Virus record (IMG/VR): IMGVR_UViG_2526164634_000018
Length of the DNA: 14,574 nucleotides
Reading direction: 5' to 3' (one strand)
Source: a virus
Lineage: Duplodnaviria > Heunggongvirae > Uroviricota > Caudoviricetes
Shown: one piece after another, positions 1 to 8,416 of the stretch
Position numbering within the stretch: the first letter of the stretch is position 1
Layout of the letters: each line of letters opens with the position of its first letter
Notes under the pieces: model-generated
The model's database searches: none
Told to the model about the DNA's origin: nothing
Seen by the model: only the letters and a program-made list of their open reading frames with translations
Program-made: the position numbers and the translations under genes

Positions 1-9
1 ATGTTCATG

Positions 10-33
10 GTAACCGGCTCATTTAAACCGTCT
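10..33. repeat. IS66-family left terminal inverted repeat (copy 1)
   Basis: Begins GTAACCG and shares CATTTAAACCGTCT with the copy 2 left end (11066..11090 reverse complement); imperfect match to the right end. Confidence 0.6.
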
Positions 34-92
34 GGTCTGTTTCCTCCGGCTCTACAAAAATAATGTCCATCATTTTTAATGGACACTATCGT

Positions 93-740
93 ATGAAACA
101 CCGGACCTGGATCACTGAAGCTTTACGTCTTCACTTTGAAGAACATTTACCCCGGGTTGTGGCCGGGCGTCGCCTGGGTGTACCAAAATCAACAGTTTGT
201 AATATGTTCGTGCGCTTTCGGAGAGCTGGCCTTTCGTGGCCTTTGCCCGCAGGCATGTCGGAGCAGGAACTTGATGCCTGCCTTTACGGACAATTTTCCA
301 CGGTACCAGTCGTACGTCCTGAAAACACCGTTATATCCGAAGCCCCCGTGATAAAAAAACGTCCCCGGCGGCCCAACTTCCCTTATGAGTTTAAAATCGC
401 CTTAGTGGAGCAGTCACTGCAGCCCGGAGCCTGTGTGGCGCAGATCGCCCGGGAAAACGGAATCAACGATAACCTGCTCTTCAACTGGCGCCATCAATAC
501 CGGAAAGGTGGCCTGCTGCCTTCCGGAAAAAATATGCCGGTACTGCTTCCCGTGACGTTAACGCCGGAGCCGGATAATAAAATCCCGGCCCCCGCACAGG
601 AACCAGAGCAGATAAATACACCGTCCGACAGTCTGTGTTGTGAGCTGATTCTGCCGGCCGGAACTCTCAGGCTTAAAGGTAAACTGACGCCGGCGTTATT
701 ACAGACACTTATCCGCGAAATGAAAGGGAGCAGCCACTGA
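93..740 (+). CDS. IS66-family orfA-like protein: N-terminal HTH module fused in frame to the canonical IS66 TnpA region
   Basis: Six-frame ORF 63..740; the ATG at 93 (MKHRTW...) aligns with the start of the copy 2 homologue, so 93 is the likelier start. C-terminal part (PRRPNFPYEFK...LQPGACVAQIARENGINDNLLFNWRHQYRKG) is the IS66 TnpA HTH region. Stop TGA 738..740 overlaps the orfB ATG (ATGA coupling). Confidence 0.75.
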   Translation: MKHRTWITEALRLHFEEHLPRVVAGRRLGVPKSTVCNMFVRFRRAGLSWPLPAGMSEQELDACLYGQFSTVPVVRPENTVISEAPVIKKRPRRPNFPYEFKIALVEQSLQPGACVAQIARENGINDNLLFNWRHQYRKGGLLPSGKNMPVLLPVTLTPEPDNKIPAPAQEPEQINTPSDSLCCELILPAGTLRLKGKLTPALLQTLIREMKGSSH

Positions 741-1087
741 TGATATCTCTCCCTGCCGGTTCGCGTATCTGGCTGGTTGCCGGTATCACCGATATGCGAA
801 ATGGTTTTAACGGCCTGGCATCAAAAGTTCAGAACGTCCTGAAGGATGACCCGTTCTCCGGACACCTGTTCATCTTCCGCGGACGCCGGGGTGACCAGAT
901 AAAAGTGTTGTGGGCTGACAGTGACGGACTGTGCCTCTTCACCAAACGCCTGGAGCGGGGCCGCTTCGTCTGGCCAGTCACCCGTGACGGCAAGGTGCAC
1001 CTTACTCCGGCTCAGTTATCCATGCTTCTTGAAGGTATCAACTGGAAGCACCCGAAACGAACGGAACGCGCTGGAATCCGCATATAA
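740..1087 (+). CDS. tnpB: IS66-family accessory protein TnpB (orfB), intact 115 aa
   Basis: ORF MISLPAGSRIWLVAGITDMRNGFNGLASKV...; typical IS66 orfB size and position between orfA and the large transposase; start overlaps the orfA stop. Confidence 0.9.
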   Translation: MISLPAGSRIWLVAGITDMRNGFNGLASKVQNVLKDDPFSGHLFIFRGRRGDQIKVLWADSDGLCLFTKRLERGRFVWPVTRDGKVHLTPAQLSMLLEGINWKHPKRTERAGIRI

Positions 1088-1106
1088 CCCGTTGTAAAGT
1101 GAGGAT

Positions 1107-2677
1107 ATGGACACCTCACTTGCTCATGAGAACGCCCGCCTGCGGGCACTGTTGCAGACGCAACAGGACACCATACGCCAGATGGCGAATACAACCGCCT
1201 GCTCTCACAGCGGGTGGCGGCTTATGCCTCCGAAATCAACCGGCTGAAGGCGCTGGTTGCGAAACTGCAGCGCATGCAGTTCGGTAAAAGCTCAGAAAAA
1301 CTTCGCGCTAAAACCGAACGGCAGATACAGGAAGCACAGGAGCGAATCAGCGCACTTCAGGAAGAAATGGCGGAAACGCTGGGTGAGCAATATGACCCGG
1401 TACTGCCATCCGCCCTGCGCCAGTCTTCAGCCCGTAAACCGTTACCGGCCTCACTTCCCCGTGAAACCCGGGTTATCCGGCCGGAAGAGGAATGCTGTCC
1501 TGCCTGTGGTGGTGAACTCAGTTCTCTGGGATGTGATGTGTCAGAGCAACTGGAGCTTATCAGCAGCGCCTTTAAGGTTATCGAAACACAACGTCCGAAA
1601 CTGGCCTGTTGCCGGTGCGACCATATCGTGCAGGCACCGGTGCCTTCAAAACCCATTGCACGCAGTTATGCCGGAGCGGGGCTCCTGGCCCATGTCGTCA
1701 CCGGAAAATATGCAGACCATCTGCCGTTATACCGCCAGTCAGAGATATACCGCCGTCAGGGTGTGGAGCTGAGCCGTGCCACGCTGGGGCGCTGGACTGG
1801 TGCCGTTGCTGAACTGCTGGAGCCGCTGTATGACGTCCTGCGCCAGTATGTGCTGATGCCCGGTAAAGTCCATGCTGATGATATCCCCGTCCCGGTCCAG
1901 GAGCCGGGCAGCGGTAAAACCCGGACAGCCCGGCTGTGGGTCTACGTCCGTGATGACCGTAACGCCGGTTCACAGATGCCCCCGGCGGTCTGGTTCGCGT
2001 ACAGTCCGGACCGGAAAGGTATCCATCCACAAAATCACCTGGCCGGTTACAGCGGTGTGCTTCAGGCCGATGCTTACGGTGGTTACCGGGCGTTATACGA
2101 ATCCGGCAGAATAACGGAAGCCGCGTGTATGGCTCATGCCCGGAGAAAAATCCACGATGTGCATGCAAGAGCGCCCACCGACATCACCACGGAAGCCCTG
2201 CAGCGTATCGGTGAACTGTATGCCATCGAGGCAGAGGTCCGGGGCTGTTCAGCAGAACAGCGTCTGGCGGCAAGAAAAACCAGAGCCGCGCCACTGATGC
2301 AGTCACTGTATGACTGGATACAGCAACAGATGAAAACACTGTCGCGTCACTCAGATACGGCAAAAGCGTTCGCATACCTGCTGAAACAGTGGGATGCACT
2401 GAACGTGTACTGCAGTAATGGCTGGGTGGAAATCGACAACAACATCGCAGAGAACGCCTTACGGGGAGTGGCCGTAGGCCGGAAAAACTGGATGTTCGCG
2501 GGTTCCGACAGCGGTGGTGAACATGCGGCGGTGTTGTACTCGCTGATCGGCACATGCCGTCTGAACAATGTGGAGCCAGAAAAGTGGCTGCGCTACGTCA
2601 TTGAACATATCCAGGATTGGCCGGCAAACCGGGTACGCGATCTGTTGCCCTGGAAAGTTGATCTGAGCTCTCAGTAA
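1107..2677 (+). pseudogene. tnpC: IS66-family transposase (orfC), disrupted by a 1-bp frameshift near 1188
   Basis: ATG at 1107 with GAGG upstream; the frame ([28 protein letters not shown]...) hits a stop after ~46 codons, and the remainder resumes in another frame as ORF 1214..2677 (487 aa). Copy 2 (8417..9988) is intact at 523 aa; copy 1 reads GCGAATACAACC where copy 2 reads GCGAAATACAACC. Confidence 0.85.
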
Positions 2678-2682
2678 ATATC

Positions 2683-2707
2683 AATACGGTTCTGGCGAGC
2701 CGCTTAC
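2683..2707. repeat. IS66-family right terminal inverted repeat (copy 1)
   Basis: Reverse complement reads GTAAGCGGCTCGCCAGAACCGTATT, matching the copy 2 right end at 8387..8411. Confidence 0.7.
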
Positions 2708-2875
2708 TATTTTCGTGTTTATCCTGTCCTGCTCCGGAATAATGCCATTCTCATCTGACTCCAGAATGTCTGCCGGTCCCAGTCGCAGTAGTGCTGTAAG
2801 CGACTGCACGTGTTCACGGCCATCATGCTTTCCGCAACCACACAGACGCTGCATAAGTTTTTTTAGTATATTCAT
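2708..2875 (-). pseudogene. 5' fragment (56 codons) of an unknown gene downstream of the tail fiber, truncated by IS copy 1
   Basis: ATG at 2875..2873 lies 1 nt after the tail fiber stop (TGA-C-ATG). Frame MNILKKLMQRLCGCGKHDGREHVQSLTALLRLGPADILESDENGIIPEQDRINTKIV runs straight into the IS end; the last residues of the 77-aa track ORF (SGSPEPY) are encoded by IS sequence. No homologue recognised. Confidence 0.4.
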
Positions 2876-2876
2876 G

Positions 2877-4189
2877 TCATTCTCCTGTTCTGCCTGTATC
2901 ACTGCCCACTTCATTCAGCCCCTTAACATCCTGCCACGGCCCGTCACCAAACCTGACCTGCAAATGCTGAAACAGCCCCTGAACCTGTGTGGCATCTTTG
3001 GGGTCAAGAAAGGTCAGTCCGGTGATGAGTGCGCCATCTGTATCCGGGAACCAGCCATTGCTGTTTGTCTCAATAATGCTCGCCGGCCCCAGACGAAAAC
3101 GGATTTGTGTCTCCCCCGGGTCGCCCTTTGGTCCCTGAGGTCCGGTTGCCCCCACCGGGCCAGCCGCACCTGTTTCTCCTTTCGGTCCCTGTGGGCCAGC
3201 CGGGCCTGCCGCACCGGTATCTCCCTTTGGACCCTGTGGACCTGCATTCCCCGTCAGACCGGTCTCTCCCCGCTCTCCCCTGTCGCCTTTCGGTCCCTGT
3301 GGTCCTGCCGGACCAGCATCACCTGCCGGTCCCCGTTCGCCGGTTGCCCCGACAGGGCCGGTGTCACCACGCTCTCCTTACTCCCCTTCGGCCCCTGAGG
3401 GCCAGCGGGCCCCTGTTCCCCCTTTGGCCCGGGAGGTCCCACCACGGTGGGGATTCGGTTTACGGCGTCTTCCGCCGCTATCCTGCTTTGTTCCGCTGAC
3501 TGTGCGCTTTCTGCTGACTCCCGGGCTTTTTCTGCTGCGGTCGTTGCATCCCTGGCTGCATTACCGGCTGCACTTTCTGCCGTCTTTCTTGACAATTCAG
3601 CTTCTGCTGCACTTTGTGATGACTCACTGGCTTTTTGAGCGGCCGCAGAAGCCGAGGACGAGGACGCATCCTCTGACTGCTTTGCTGAGGCTGCACTTTC
3701 TGCCGCCTGCCGGGCTGACTCCGATGCCTCCCCTGCTGAAGTGTCAGCATTTGCAGCGCTCTCTTCTGCCTGACTGGCTGATATGCCGGCATTCCTCGCT
3801 GACGTCTCCGCCTCTCCGGCATTCTTCTTCGCCTCCTCAGCGTGACGCGCCACCTCTTCCACCATCAGTTCAAAAGGGCGCAGTGCCTCCGGCCGGACAT
3901 CATCCTCCGTCATTGCACCGAGGAAATCATTCAGTGTGCCCGGCTTTGAGTCCTCATACACGGTGATAATCCCGGCGTGTGACGGCGGAAAACCTTCAAC
4001 CAGCAGGGTGACGCTGTACTGACCATGCTCAACATCCATGCTGTAACGTCCGGCTTCATCCGGATTTTCAGAGGCCACCGTGTTCACCACCACCGTGCTG
4101 CTGGTTCGTCTGGCCTTCAGCACAATGGTGCAGTTCTGTACTGGTTTTCCTGTGCCATCTTTAAGCACGCCAGAAATTTTTACTGTCAT
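2877..4189 (-). pseudogene. stf: Lambda Stf-like side tail fiber with Ala/Ser/Glu-rich linker, Gly-X-Y repeat tract and C-terminal globular domain; 1-bp frameshift near 3378..3380
   Basis: N-terminus MTVKISGVLKDGTGKPVQNCTIVLKA...GQYSVTLLVEGFPPSHAGIITVYEDS matches the lambda Stf N-terminal domain as I recall it. Frame A (3254..4189) leaves the Gly-X-Y register after GPQGPKG; the register continues in frame C (2877..3377) through to a C-terminal domain. Restoring one A in AGTAAGGA (to AGTAAAGGA) gives a continuous ~437-aa protein. Confidence 0.8.
3108..3440 (-). repeat. Collagen-like Gly-X-Y triplet repeat tract (~37 triplets) within the tail fiber gene
   Basis: Minus-strand translation gives [19 protein letters not shown]... 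then [31 protein letters not shown]...[12 protein letters not shown] with strict 3-residue periodicity; the frameshift lies inside it. Confidence 0.8.
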
Positions 4190-4200
4190 ACTTTTCCACC

Positions 4201-4235
4201 AATAAAAAAAGCCCGCAGCAGTGACGCCACGGGCT
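4201..4235 (-). terminator. Putative Rho-independent terminator downstream of lom
   Basis: On the minus strand, stem AGCCCG / CGGGCT (4209..4214 pairs with 4229..4234) followed by a run of 7-8 T (A-run 4202..4209 on the plus strand). Confidence 0.5.
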
Positions 4236-4340
4236 TCAGGACAGTGTAACTTTACGTTTCCTCAAACGCAGTTCACCCCATAAGGTGGATGAACCTGCGT
4301 ATCATAACAATATTTACAGAAGATAAATCGGCGTCTGTTG

Positions 4341-5007: not shown

Positions 5008-8000
5008 TCAGCTGATACTGATGCCTGCGGTGGCTTTCTTCATCACCACAACCAGCAAATCGCTGATACTTGCTGTGGGATACCAGTTATTTACCAGCCA
5101 TGCTGACACCGAAAACTCCAGCGTCATGTGACCGTGACCGGCAGGCATATCAATAACACCACTGTAAATCAGCGTATTATCCAGCGCGGTACGGTTATAA
5201 ATTTCAGCACCGTTTTTCCGCACTATCAGACGGCATGAGGAGTAAATATCAGTATGCTCTCTCTCATGCTTAGCGCCACTGAATGCCACCGCCGGAATAA
5301 CAATTTGCCGGTCAAACGGCTGATCGTCATAAACCCTGACGGTAATGGTCCCTGATGGCCACCGCTCCGGTGCACGGGAGTCCCGGGGGAAAGCTTTGCC
5401 CACTGTTTTAACGAGATCGCCTTCAATCTGGTTGGCGGACAGTTTTCCCAGAACCCGACAGTTTTCGTTAATCGTGACGTTGTTGAGCGTCCCGGAGTTC
5501 GCATTCACGTTACCGCTGATATCGGCATTTTTCGCCGTCAGCCGCCCGTCCGGTGTCAGGGAAAATGCCGGAGGATTACCGCCGCTGGTAATGGTGGGAG
5601 CCGTCAGGTATTTCAGGAACACTTCGTTCATGAATATCTGATCGCCCTGACCAACAAACATCGGCTTTGTGTTGCCATTCGCAGGATTAATCATCGCAAT
5701 CCGGTCAGCAGCCAGAAGCACCTGACTCTGCATACCTGCTGGCGTATTCTCAATACCGGCTCCGATACCCGCAATATAAAGGCGTCCGTCCTGCATCTGC
5801 TGCAGTTTCACGGCCCACATGCTGTTCAGGTTATTATTTGTATCAACCTGAACTTTCTGTATCTGCTGGATTGCCGCACTCTGGTCTTCCAGTTTTTTAT
5901 TGACGGTCTGCGTGATTTCATTGCTGACATTCGTAATGGACGTCCTGATTTCAGCCAGGTCCGGCGCAAGCTGACCGTTATCAATCTGCGTCCACAGCTC
6001 CTGGGCCAGATGTGTTTTCCCGATTTCTCCTTTGAAAAAATCCAGGTAACCTTCCGCATCATCGCTCGCCCGACCGACAGCCTCCACGAATGCCGATTTG
6101 CCAACGGTGTTCACACTGCGAACGTAAAAATAATAATCATGGCCCGGTTTGATATTGATACTGGCGGCTATCCAGTACAGCGCCGTACCAAGATAACGCG
6201 CGCTGGTTTCAACCTGCCTGATATCAGCAATCCGTTTTTCCGAGAACCAGAACTCAAACTGTACCGTCGGATCATAAACCGCAAAATGCGGCGTGGCGGT
6301 TATCTGAAAATAGCCCGGCGTCAGCTCAATCCGCGACGGTGCTGCCGGTGCGGCAATCCGGAACGATACCGATGCCGGATCGCCCTGCTGTCCCCACGCA
6401 TTTACCGCCCGGACTGTCAGCCTGTAATTTCCCAGCGCCAGTTGCGTGAAGCGGTATGTAGTTTCCGTCGTCCTGGCCGTGCTGACCAGCCGCTCACTGC
6501 CATCGTCCGCTGCCACGGTCAGGCGAAGCAGGAAGCTCACGCCCTTCACCACCTTCGGCGTGTCCCAGCGCGCCAGCACCTGATATTCCCCACTGTCTGC
6601 GGTGACTTCTGCGGTCAGGTGCTGCACCGCTGGCGGCGTGACACCATTCACCGTGCCGCTCTGGTCGCCGTCAAAGTGCGCCCCGTTATCCACGATGGCC
6701 TCTTTTTCCGGTACATGCTGCACGGCGGTGATGGCATACGTGCCGTCGTCGTTCTCACGGATACTCACGCAGCGGAACAGGCGCTGGCGCAGCATCGGCA
6801 GCTTCAGCCCCCACACGCTGTACTCGGCAACGCCGTCAGGAACACGGCTCACTTTTACCTTCACGCCATCAGTGACGGACTGAACCTCCACGCTGACCGG
6901 ATTGCCACTTCCGTCAACCAGGCTTATCAGCGTGGTGCCGGAAGATGGCAGCGTGATTTCACGGTCGAGCGTCAGCGTCCGGGTCTGGCTGTTCACCGCC
7001 AGCACGCGCCCGCCGGTGCTGATACCGGCATAGTCATCATCACAGATTTCAATGACATCGCCCGGTACATGGCGAAGCCCTTCTGCACCCACGCTGAAGT
7101 CCACGGTCTGCGTTTCCAGCAGTTCCGTTTTAATCAGCCACAGCCCGGCGCGGTGCACCTGCCCCCGGCTGGTACAGCCAAAGGCATCCATCTTCGTGAC
7201 GTGACGACCGTAACGGGCAATGGCCTGCGTATCCTCCACAAGCTCTGTCGCCGTCTCCCAGCCGTTGTTCGGGTCAATCCAGTTCACCTCAACGGCATTA
7301 TGGCGGTCCTTCAGGGCGCTGAAGCTGTAGCGGAACGGCGCGCCATCATCCGGCATCACCACATTACTGCGGTTATAGGTCCACACCTTATCTGATGGTC
7401 GGTCCTGCACGAACGTCAGCGTCTGCCCGTTCCATACCGGCATACAGCGCATCGCCGAGCAGAAATCACTGAGCACATCCCACGCCTTGCGCTGTGTGGT
7501 CAGGTACGCATTACAGGTAATGCGCGGCTCCGTGCCGCCAAAGCCATCCGGCACTGACTGGTCGCAGTACTGGCCGATGACATACAGCGCCCATTTGTCC
7601 ACATCCGCCGCACCAAGACGTTTCCCCATGCCGTAGCGTGGATGGGTCAGCATATCCCACAGACACCAGGCCATGTTGTTGCTGTATGCCGGTTTAAACG
7701 TTCCGTCCCAGATACCGCTGTATTGCCGCGTCTGCGGGTTATAATTCGACGGCACCTGCAGAATACGCCCGCGCAGATGATAATTACGGCTCACCTGCTG
7801 GCTGCCGAACTGCTCCGAGTCCACCTGCACGCCGACCAGTGCCGTGTTCGGGTAGCCCTGTTTCACATCGATGATTTCGGTGTATGACGACCAGAGCGTT
7901 TTGTTCTGCAGCTGGTCTGTGGTGCTGTCAGGCGTCATCCTGCGCATCCGGATATTAAACGGGCGCGGCGGCAGGTTATCCACCACCACCGAGGCCAGAT

Positions 8001-8386
8001 ACTGCGAGGTGGTTTTGCCCTTAATGGTGATGTCTTTTTCCGTCACCCAGCCACCGTTACGCTGTATCTGAACCAGCAGGCGGACTTCCGACGGATTCCG
8101 GTCCCCCTTTGAGGTGGTTTCCACCAGTGCCTGCACACCGAAGGTAAAGCGCAGACGGTCGATGTTTGCCGACGTGATGGTCCGGGTGATCGGCGTGTCA
8201 TATTTCACTTCCGTACCCAGCACCGTCTCGGAGCCGGAGGATTCAAATCCCTCCGGCGGTGTCTGCTCCTGCTCACCTGCCCGGAACACCACCGTGACAC
8301 CGGATATATTGGTATTCCCCTCACTGTCCAGCACCGGCGTACTGTTCAGCAGCACGCTTTTTAATCCGTCCACCGGACCTTCAACC
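5008..8386 (-). pseudogene. J: Tail tip / host-specificity protein J, large 3' fragment (codon ~37 to stop), separated from its start by IS copy 2
   Basis: 1121-aa ORF; the first ~780 residues ([16 protein letters not shown]...[41 protein letters not shown]...) are near-identical to lambda gpJ as I recall it, while the C-terminal ~340 residues diverge. The upstream reading frame runs directly into the IS end at 8387. Confidence 0.9.
8379..8386. repeat. 8-bp target-site duplication CTTCAACC (right flank of IS copy 2)
   Basis: Identical 8-mer immediately outside both ends of the IS (8379..8386 and 11091..11098); 8 bp is the usual duplication size for IS66-family elements. Confidence 0.85.
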
Positions 8387-8411
8387 GTAAGCGGCTCGCC
8401 AGAACCGTATT
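8387..8411. repeat. IS66-family right terminal inverted repeat (copy 2)
   Basis: GTAAGCGGCTCGCCAGAACCGTATT, identical to the copy 1 right end. Confidence 0.7.
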
Positions 8412-8416
8412 GATAT

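Follow-up and report, generated by a model that had tools for sequence, protein, structure and literature searches.

How is a phage tail fibre gene to be understood when its reading frame is broken within the most repetitive part of the protein that it encodes? This question is raised by a locus in a lambda-like prophage of Escherichia coli DEC12D, contained in a stretch of 14,574 nucleotides (nt) from IMG/VR virus record IMGVR_UViG_2526164634_000018 (hereafter the window), which is the whole of contig AIHD01000054.1 of the draft assembly GCA_000250275.2. The gene occupies positions 2877..4189 of the minus strand, to which all coordinates of its parts refer, and we are highly confident that it is a side tail fibre gene of the EPclA type, the intact form of which would be a four-part trimer and which is here one base short. 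EPclA to EPclD are the prophage collagen-like proteins of enterohaemorrhagic E. coli named by Ghosh et al. 2012 (PLoS One 7:e37872, PMC3368898), and EPclA consists of the parts PfN, PCoil, Col and PfC. A preliminary description made from the letters of the window had already recognised a tail fibre broken in its repeats; the identity of each part, the likely origin of the break and the way in which such genes vary are considered here in turn.

Domain architecture of the fibre gene

The gene starts with ATG at 4189, ends with TGA at 2879..2877 and measures 1313 nt, one base under the intact form of 1314 nt, as delimited by open reading frames (ORFs), three-frame translation and alignment of homologues. 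Translation in three frames divides it in two. Frame A, 4189..3254, encodes 311 amino acids (aa) comprising the N-terminal domain, an Ala/Ser/Glu-rich segment and Gly-X-Y triplets 1-7, after which 40 codons are read out of frame before a stop; frame B (3377 to 2880) opens with GER GDT GPV and continues through the other 30 triplets to GDP GET and then the C-terminal domain up to the stop. Insertion of one G yields a protein of 437 aa in which 37 Gly-X-Y triplets follow one another without a break (residues 251-361), and intact 437-aa homologues share this layout at 95-97% DNA identity. Two of these, both 1314 nt long, served as references: one from E. coli FDAARGOS_1059 (96.7% identical) and gene H0004 of phage VT1-Sakai (94.8%), annotated as 'tail fiber protein, similar to lambda Orf-401'. 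The proposal that the two frames belong to a single tail fibre protein is therefore sustained, since the repaired product aligns with the intact fibres of other lambdoid prophages. The family is common: copies covering at least 80% of the gene occur in 693 of 5426 complete E. coli genomes, at up to 16 matching places per genome and under the annotation 'prophage tail fiber N-terminal domain-containing protein', and a near-full copy occurs in 141 phage records, mostly of Shiga toxin (Stx)-converting phages. The gene order of the window, H-M-L-K-I-J-lom-fibre, is that of lambda.

The N-terminal anchor, PfN, comprises residues 1-133 (3791..4189), which in the repaired protein match positions 1-133 of the 134 in the Pfam profile PF08400, 'Prophage tail fibre N-terminal' (E = 2e-67). 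In a BLASTP comparison with orf-401 of lambda, the N-terminal portion of Stf, 116 of 160 residues are identical (73%, E = 1e-73) and nothing significant appears past residue 160, in agreement with the initial impression that some 130 N-terminal residues resemble lambda Stf. Within the anchor, residues 1-94 (3908..4189) are the equivalent of the Stf collar domain and match residues 1-94 of the 94-residue chain 'Tail fiber protein' in PDB 9E7M (chain Ta) and 9MGH (E = 6e-48), which is the collar domain of Ur-lambda Stf as determined by cryo-electron microscopy (Yu et al. 2025, PMC12617516). In Ur-lambda, 12 copies of this collar domain ring the gpV/gpM junction of the tail and continue in threes, via a flexible linker, as four trimeric fibres (PMC12617516).

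These matches also bear on a quite different reading, in which the protein would be a bacterial surface collagen-like adhesin comparable to Scl or BclA, carried by the prophage as cargo and forming no part of the virion. The presence of a collagen tract, the appearance of BclA among the PDB hits and the virulence cargo found downstream of such fibre genes (NleB, OspG-like, Cif and NleG in locus L004, TccP2 in L001) all speak in its favour. However, the protein has no signal peptide and no cell-wall or membrane anchor, its N-terminus is homologous to a collar solved on the lambda tail, 13 PHROG tail fibre families (profiles of 72 to 1376 positions) begin with the same domain, and the gene sits in the stf position after J and lom, all of which make an adhesin very unlikely.

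Between the anchor and the collagen tract, residues 134-250 (3440..3790) make up the PCoil segment, which stands out by its composition, its periodicity and the dispersed imperfect 36-nt repeats in its DNA. Its 117 residues include 38 Ala, 24 Ser and 15 Glu, so the segment is indeed as biased as had been described, but the term 'low-complexity linker' is not apt: the Ala and Ser positions give a single strong Fourier peak at 3.5 residues with autocorrelation maxima at 7, 14 and 21, and because of this periodicity the segment is taken to be a coiled coil with a heptad pattern and not a loose, featureless linker. The CTGCACTTTCTGCCG-like units that had been noticed in this part do exist, as four copies of a 36-nt unit (family D3) at 3503, 3569, 3608 and 3692 that are 64-78% identical and contain TGCACTTTCTGCCG, but they are not arranged in tandem. 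In the collagen part, families D1, D2 and D4 have five copies each of units of 29 to 33 nt, at spacings of 45, 54 and 63 nt that are all multiples of 9 nt. Tandem Repeats Finder detected no true tandem array across the gene, just two tiny period-9 arrays in the collagen part. The triplet periodicity looked for is clear in the protein, and the DNA repeats are dispersed and imperfect.

The collagen tract begins in the start-codon frame, as judged by translation, with triplets 1-7 (3377..3439) and continues in the second frame with triplets 8-37 (3108..3377), which are recognised by translation, the Pfam Collagen profile and repeat families D1, D2 and D4. As the sequence stands, two frames share the tract, with the division at about 3377, and only once the base is restored are the triplets unbroken; their number, first estimated at about 37, then comes to exactly that. 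On the repaired protein the Collagen profile (PF01391) scores E = 4e-18, collagen chains in the PDB match down to E = 2e-71, and a run of this length is far beyond chance. The X position is held by Pro in 18 of the triplets, Glu in 7 and Asp in 5, and the Y position by Ala and Thr (8 each), Lys and Gln (6 each) and Arg (5).

Beyond the collagen tract, residues 363-426 (2913..3104) match all 64 positions of PF06820, 'Putative prophage tail fibre C-terminus' (E = 1e-35); the protein then ends with a tail of 11 residues before the stop codon at 2877..2879. This is the PfC domain, and it gives a name to the distinct domain that had been suspected in the C-terminal 75 residues. When 1.84 billion representative proteins were searched with a PfC profile, 48 hits were obtained at E <= 1e-3, nearly all of them fragments of one E. 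coli family, together with a few long repetitive proteins that look spurious.

Taken together, the sequence-defined features of the EPclA family are all present, the unbroken collagen domain only after repair, and nothing in the data contradicts the identification. By homology to the roughly 95% identical recombinant EPclA, the intact protein would form a trimeric dumbbell with a thermally stable triple helix. Three chains would trimerise via PCoil and PfC, as has been shown for the near-identical EPclA, and their N-terminal domains (about residues 1-94) would join a collar of 12 subunits at the gpV/gpM junction, with four fibres per virion. A short hinge, NRIPTVV, would precede the 37 triplets, which would form a collagen helix between PCoil and PfC that is stable at body temperature, and the 64-residue PfC would trimerise at the distal end as a presumed cell-binding knob. 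With four such fibres, about 60 nm long and hinged, PfC could reach the cell surface and accelerate adsorption, as Stf does through OmpC in Ur-lambda. It is important to stress what weighs against this picture: the mounting of EPclA fibres on the virion, their part in adsorption and the binding of a receptor by PfC are all drawn by analogy, and AlphaFold2, given the 75-residue C-terminal part with a 12-sequence alignment, produced a model with a mean pLDDT (predicted local distance difference test) of 42.8 and a pTM (predicted template modelling score) of 0.27, which is unusable. No fold was therefore gained from the structure prediction, an outcome attributable to the domain being trimeric and its family very shallow. 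No later functional study of the collagen-type side tail fibres of Stx prophages came to light in a search of the literature.

Origin of the frame break

Global alignment with two homologues, with which BLAST agrees, reveals a single 1-nt gap at gene position 812 (about 3377 in the window), where GGG has become GG and two substitutions adjoin. The site, 3375..3382, reads AGT AAG G.. in place of GAC AAG GG.., so that Asp is changed to Ser at the break. The gap lies within the collagen tract, and the remark that the gene is out of frame inside its repeats was accurate. From the sequence as given, only a 311-residue product consisting of anchor and coiled coil, and lacking a tip, could be made.

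Whether the base is really missing is best approached through the distribution of the allele and the company it keeps. An exact-pattern scan did not find it in the representative genomes of 185,579 species, nor did an 81-nt megablast find it in the 5426 complete E. coli genomes, in which the best matches differ by the gap and by both adjacent substitutions, including the AGT codon; its 311-aa product, EHX42298.1, is known only from this contig. When the contig is compared with the complete genome of a clonal relative, O111:H2 strain 12A, its unique DNA is 99.2-100% identical, and six single-base indels are seen: one in the fibre gene at 3377, one at 1186 in the first of two IS66 copies in the window, and four at 10195, 10519, 10610 and 10791 in the second. 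All six lie in multi-copy DNA (a genome has several prophage paralogues of the fibre gene as well), and in four cases the length of a homopolymer run of at least 2 bases is altered. Besides the fibre gene, they break tnpC of the first IS66 copy and both tnpA and tnpB of the second. Such a pattern suggests that the repeats of this draft contig are of poor sequence quality. In particular, the second IS66 copy has four indels and just three substitutions, and because such a ratio typifies sequencing or consensus errors in repeats, and not evolution, an artefact is favoured. Our preference, which is a mild one, is accordingly that the missing base is a sequencing or assembly error. What counts against an error is that a unique part of the contig, 11089..12829, is 100% identical to strain 12A and has no indel, so that poor quality does not extend over the whole contig.

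A serious possibility, to which we give somewhat less than even weight, is that the one-base deletion is genuine, in which case the fibre gene would be a pseudogene in decay, like the other parts of the defective prophage. Other lesions of the window are hard to blame on sequencing, namely the insertion of an IS66 element into J with a perfect 8-bp target duplication and the truncation of the small ORF downstream of the fibre gene by another. Loss of frame is also well precedented, since frame-lost EPclA copies are documented in strains EDL933 and Sakai (Table 2, PMC3368898) and are common among the database homologues (P0185; P0202, with 37 members; P0206), and in the 5.5 kb of fibre-lom-J DNA this is the only indel. 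A genuine deletion has to be squared, however, with the failure to find the allele and its two adjacent substitutions anywhere else, with its nature as a change of homopolymer length, and with the five further single-base indels of the draft contig, all of them in repeated DNA.

The third possibility is that the break is put to use, either by programmed ribosomal frameshifting or by phase variation through slippage on the G-run, to alternate between the full fibre and an anchor-only protein. There is a short G-run here within a repetitive tract, and both frames are open over a long distance. Nevertheless, a -1 shift would be needed exactly at AAG|G, where the junction AGT AAG GAG is not a slippery X XXY YYZ sequence; a TAA stands directly upstream in frame B; and a run of 2-3 G is too short for phase variation. 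Comparison with other copies points the same way: the best copies in the 693 complete genomes and 141 phage records span 1314 nt, one base over the window gene, the nearest copies among the complete E. coli genomes all keep the extra base and read through in one frame, and other frame-lost alleles break at different positions. The probability of a functional break is accordingly regarded as close to negligible. In practical terms, an annotation should name an EPclA-type side tail fibre gene with a disrupted frame, in a defective lambdoid prophage, and mark the frameshift as unverified.

Variation of the fibre and its genomic surroundings

It had been suggested that the repeat tracts expand or contract by slippage and that distal domains are swapped, with consequences for host range. 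The first suggestion holds for the length changes themselves. The representatives of the homologue clusters have 4, 5, 8, 14-16, 19-21, 25, 26, 32 or 34-38 triplets, and all deletions in the collagen tract relative to the repaired protein remove whole triplets (3, 15, 33, 36, 48, 51, 54, 63, 66, 69, 87, 96 and 99 aa). The coiled coil of relatives is also subject to deletion, with 28, 41 or 63 aa missing. The repeat copies at 3569 and 3692 lie as far apart as the 41-aa (123-nt) deletion is long, and this deletion stands between exact direct repeats of 17 nt, the unit that the preliminary description had picked out. Not all of these variants can be due to collapse during assembly, because several come from complete chromosomes. 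Slippage on tandem repeats as the sole mechanism was dropped, since Tandem Repeats Finder sees no real tandem array. Because the DNA repeats are dispersed and only 65-90% alike, unequal recombination, either among them or between prophage paralogues, is at least as good an explanation as replication slippage.

The suggestion that distal domains are exchanged is supported directly, in that one and the same PfN-PCoil-Col stem ends in PF06820, in Peptidase_S74 (in Shigella and some E. coli) or in other sequences. By inference, tract length and tip exchange may influence host range. Exchange on a finer scale may also have touched the window gene, which differs from strain 12A by 43 substitutions concentrated in two patches, nt 207-351 (about 3839..3983), at the end of PfN, and nt 1058-1275 (about 2915..3132), which takes in the last part of the collagen tract and the greater part of PfC, with flanks that are more than 99% identical. 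This patchiness suggests gene conversion between prophage fibre paralogues, or else a chimeric assembly consensus. Among the relatives there are also hybrid products: in two database proteins (P0050 and P0061), IS66 transposase sequence is fused to PfC.

One base past the fibre stop, from 2875 downward on the minus strand, begins a small ORF that encodes a paralogue of PfC (2708..2875; Pfam PF06820, E = 6e-11; 38% identical to the fibre PfC). Its intact form is 89 aa long, as in the copies of related prophages at L004:377-646 and L010:3627-3896, and in the window it is cut after codon 56 by an IS66 element. It matches phrog_576 and is found at 88% identity or more in 296 phage records, where it is mostly annotated as hypothetical (e.g., L0122 of 933W); it is not mentioned by Ghosh et al. 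2012 (PMC3368898). The PfC paralogue sits in the slot otherwise taken by a fibre chaperone or adhesin gene, Tfa or, in S74-type fibres, a Gp38_N gene. Tip and downstream partner seem to be exchanged together, because fibres of the PfC type are followed by the PfC paralogue gene and those of the S74 type with the same stem by a gene of the Gp38_N family. It is tempting, though doubtful, to regard the distal end of the fibre as a two-gene cassette of fibre and free-standing PfC paralogue, in which the paralogue could help with assembly, cap the fibre or trimerise together with it and so determine receptor specificity. If so, the tip of the fibre itself would have given rise to a novel type of accessory protein for tail fibres. 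It is the one loose end of the locus that holds some promise, and the window, with its IS66-truncated gene, is a poor place for studying it.

Several database proteins combine the two genes. One (P0054) joins the N-terminus of the small ORF to the C-terminus of the fibre PfC, as though two PfC paralogues had recombined, and in two others of 494 aa (P0105 and P0118) the fibre is fused to the small ORF via a frameshift in PfC. The idea of a designed fusion by frameshift, which the latter two brought up, was rejected, the connecting frame having a stop codon in the window. Immediately past the fibre cassette, related prophages have genes for type III effectors, with NleB/SseK, an OspG-like kinase, Cif and NleG at L004:823-5502 and TccP2 at L001:8419-9314; in the window this region is replaced by IS66 at the contig end.

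The element concerned, an ISCro1-like member of the IS66 family (9..2707, plus strand), truncates the small ORF, ends the contig and is 99.6% identical to the copy in strain 12A. With ATGTTCAT as the 8 bases on one side and TATTTTCG on the other, it lacks a target duplication, which points to a rearrangement or deletion, or to a contig break in the repeat. The second IS66-family element (8387..11090), which is closest to an IS679-like copy of strain 12A, lies in codon 34 of J between perfect 8-bp target duplications, CTTCAACC, at 8379..8386 and 11091..11098; joining the J parts 11199..11099 and 8386..5008 restores a gene of 3480 nt. Because J is interrupted, the prophage is defective whatever the state of its fibre gene, and would be unable to build an infectious tail.

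A few further features of the region may be recorded. Between the tail genes I and J, an ORF of 116 aa (11266..11616, minus strand) has a lipoprotein-type signal (…IIALTGC…) and a match to phrog_914, and no Pfam or NCBIfam match was found for it. It is also present in strain 12A, where it is annotated as hypothetical, and has the look of a 'moron', a small cargo gene lodged in the tail operon. Opposite the fibre gene, the plus strand has ORFs of 227 codons (2715..3398) and 201 codons (3361..3966), as expected from G+C-rich, repetitive coding DNA without stop codons; nothing marks them as genes. The lambda record likewise annotates an antisense orf206b inside orf-401. Finally, a strong terminator-like hairpin lies between lom and the fibre gene (4208..4237, minus strand), with 13 pairs followed by the T-run TTTTTATT, and ends about 18 nt before the fibre ATG. 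It is a match to consensus only; if it is active, fibre expression would need read-through, for example by Q-antiterminated late transcription.

Comparison with EPclA, lambda Stf and other collagen-like proteins

The closest known counterpart of the window gene is EPclA itself. Its modal form in O157:H7 strains EDL933 and Sakai has 437 aa, of which 116 belong to PCoil and 111 to the collagen domain, and examples are ECs2717 and ECs2941 of Sakai and Z0982 of EDL933 (PMC3368898). The recombinant protein is trimeric according to size-exclusion chromatography with multi-angle laser light scattering, circular dichroism and electron microscopy; PCoil and PfC each trimerise and PfN alone is monomeric (PMC3368898). 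Its collagen domain has a circular dichroism spectrum of the collagen type, melting temperatures are 42 C for this domain and about 52 C for the coiled coil, and the molecule is a dumbbell of about 50-62 nm with a hinge between coiled coil and collagen (PMC3368898). The same study reported collagen domains of 27 to 322 aa in other strains and listed copies 'with frame-loss between domains', namely Z1382, Z3309/Z3307 and ECs2159/ECs2158 (PMC3368898). The repaired window gene has the same modules and lengths (PfN, a PCoil of 117 as against 116 aa, a 111-aa Col and PfC, 437 aa in all) at the same locus after J and lom. It differs in lacking one base in triplet 7/8, in the manner of the frame-lost 'EPclA*' copies of that study (PMC3368898), in a few substitutions peculiar to this allele (Ser for Asp at the break, and those positions of PfC that are commonly polymorphic), and in its host, DEC12D being an enteropathogenic E. 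coli strain of the O111:H2 lineage and not O157:H7.

It follows that the gene is not novel: the architecture, biophysics, variability and defective copies of such fibres have been published, and the structure of the anchor is solved. The locus has little significance beyond its annotation. The family as a whole is of interest for its collagen helices, which are stable at 42 C without hydroxyproline, and for being a set of modular fibres that vary in length and tip over many pathogenic E. coli prophages and may influence which strains are reached by phages carrying Stx or effector genes, a point already made in the 2012 paper.

With lambda Stf, which is encoded by orf-401/orf-314 in lambda PaPa and is intact in Ur-lambda, the window protein shares the collar and the start of the coiled coil (73% identity over 160 aa), the genomic position after lom and an Ala/Ser-rich proximal shaft; the copy of laboratory lambda is also inactivated by a frameshift. 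Distally the two diverge. Lambda Stf continues with a long coiled coil, Pf2 repeats and a T4 gp37-like, OmpC-binding tip, and the gene for the chaperone Tfa lies downstream, whereas the window protein has a collagen helix and a small PfC knob, with the PfC paralogue downstream. Consistent with this, no Pfam hit to Pf2 repeats (PF03406) was obtained on the repaired protein, the C-terminal half of which consists of collagen and PF06820, and no Tfa-type gene lies directly downstream, the ORF found there being a PF06820 paralogue and not Caudo_TAP.

Fibres of the EPclB and EPclD types (L0121 of 933W and ECs1228; the 'peptidase S74' fibres of Shigella and E. coli) have the PfN-coiled-coil-collagen stem in common with the window protein. 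EPclB, however, has two collagen domains with a Pf2 repeat between them, and the EPclD/S74 type ends in the intramolecular-chaperone domain Peptidase_S74, the next gene being of the Gp38_N family and not a PfC paralogue. Outside phages, Scl1 and Scl2 of Streptococcus pyogenes and BclA of Bacillus anthracis likewise combine a hydroxyproline-free (Gly-X-Y)n helix with a C- or N-terminal trimerisation domain, but these are proteins of the cell surface or the exosporium that have secretion and anchoring signals, where the window protein has a domain that binds the phage tail.

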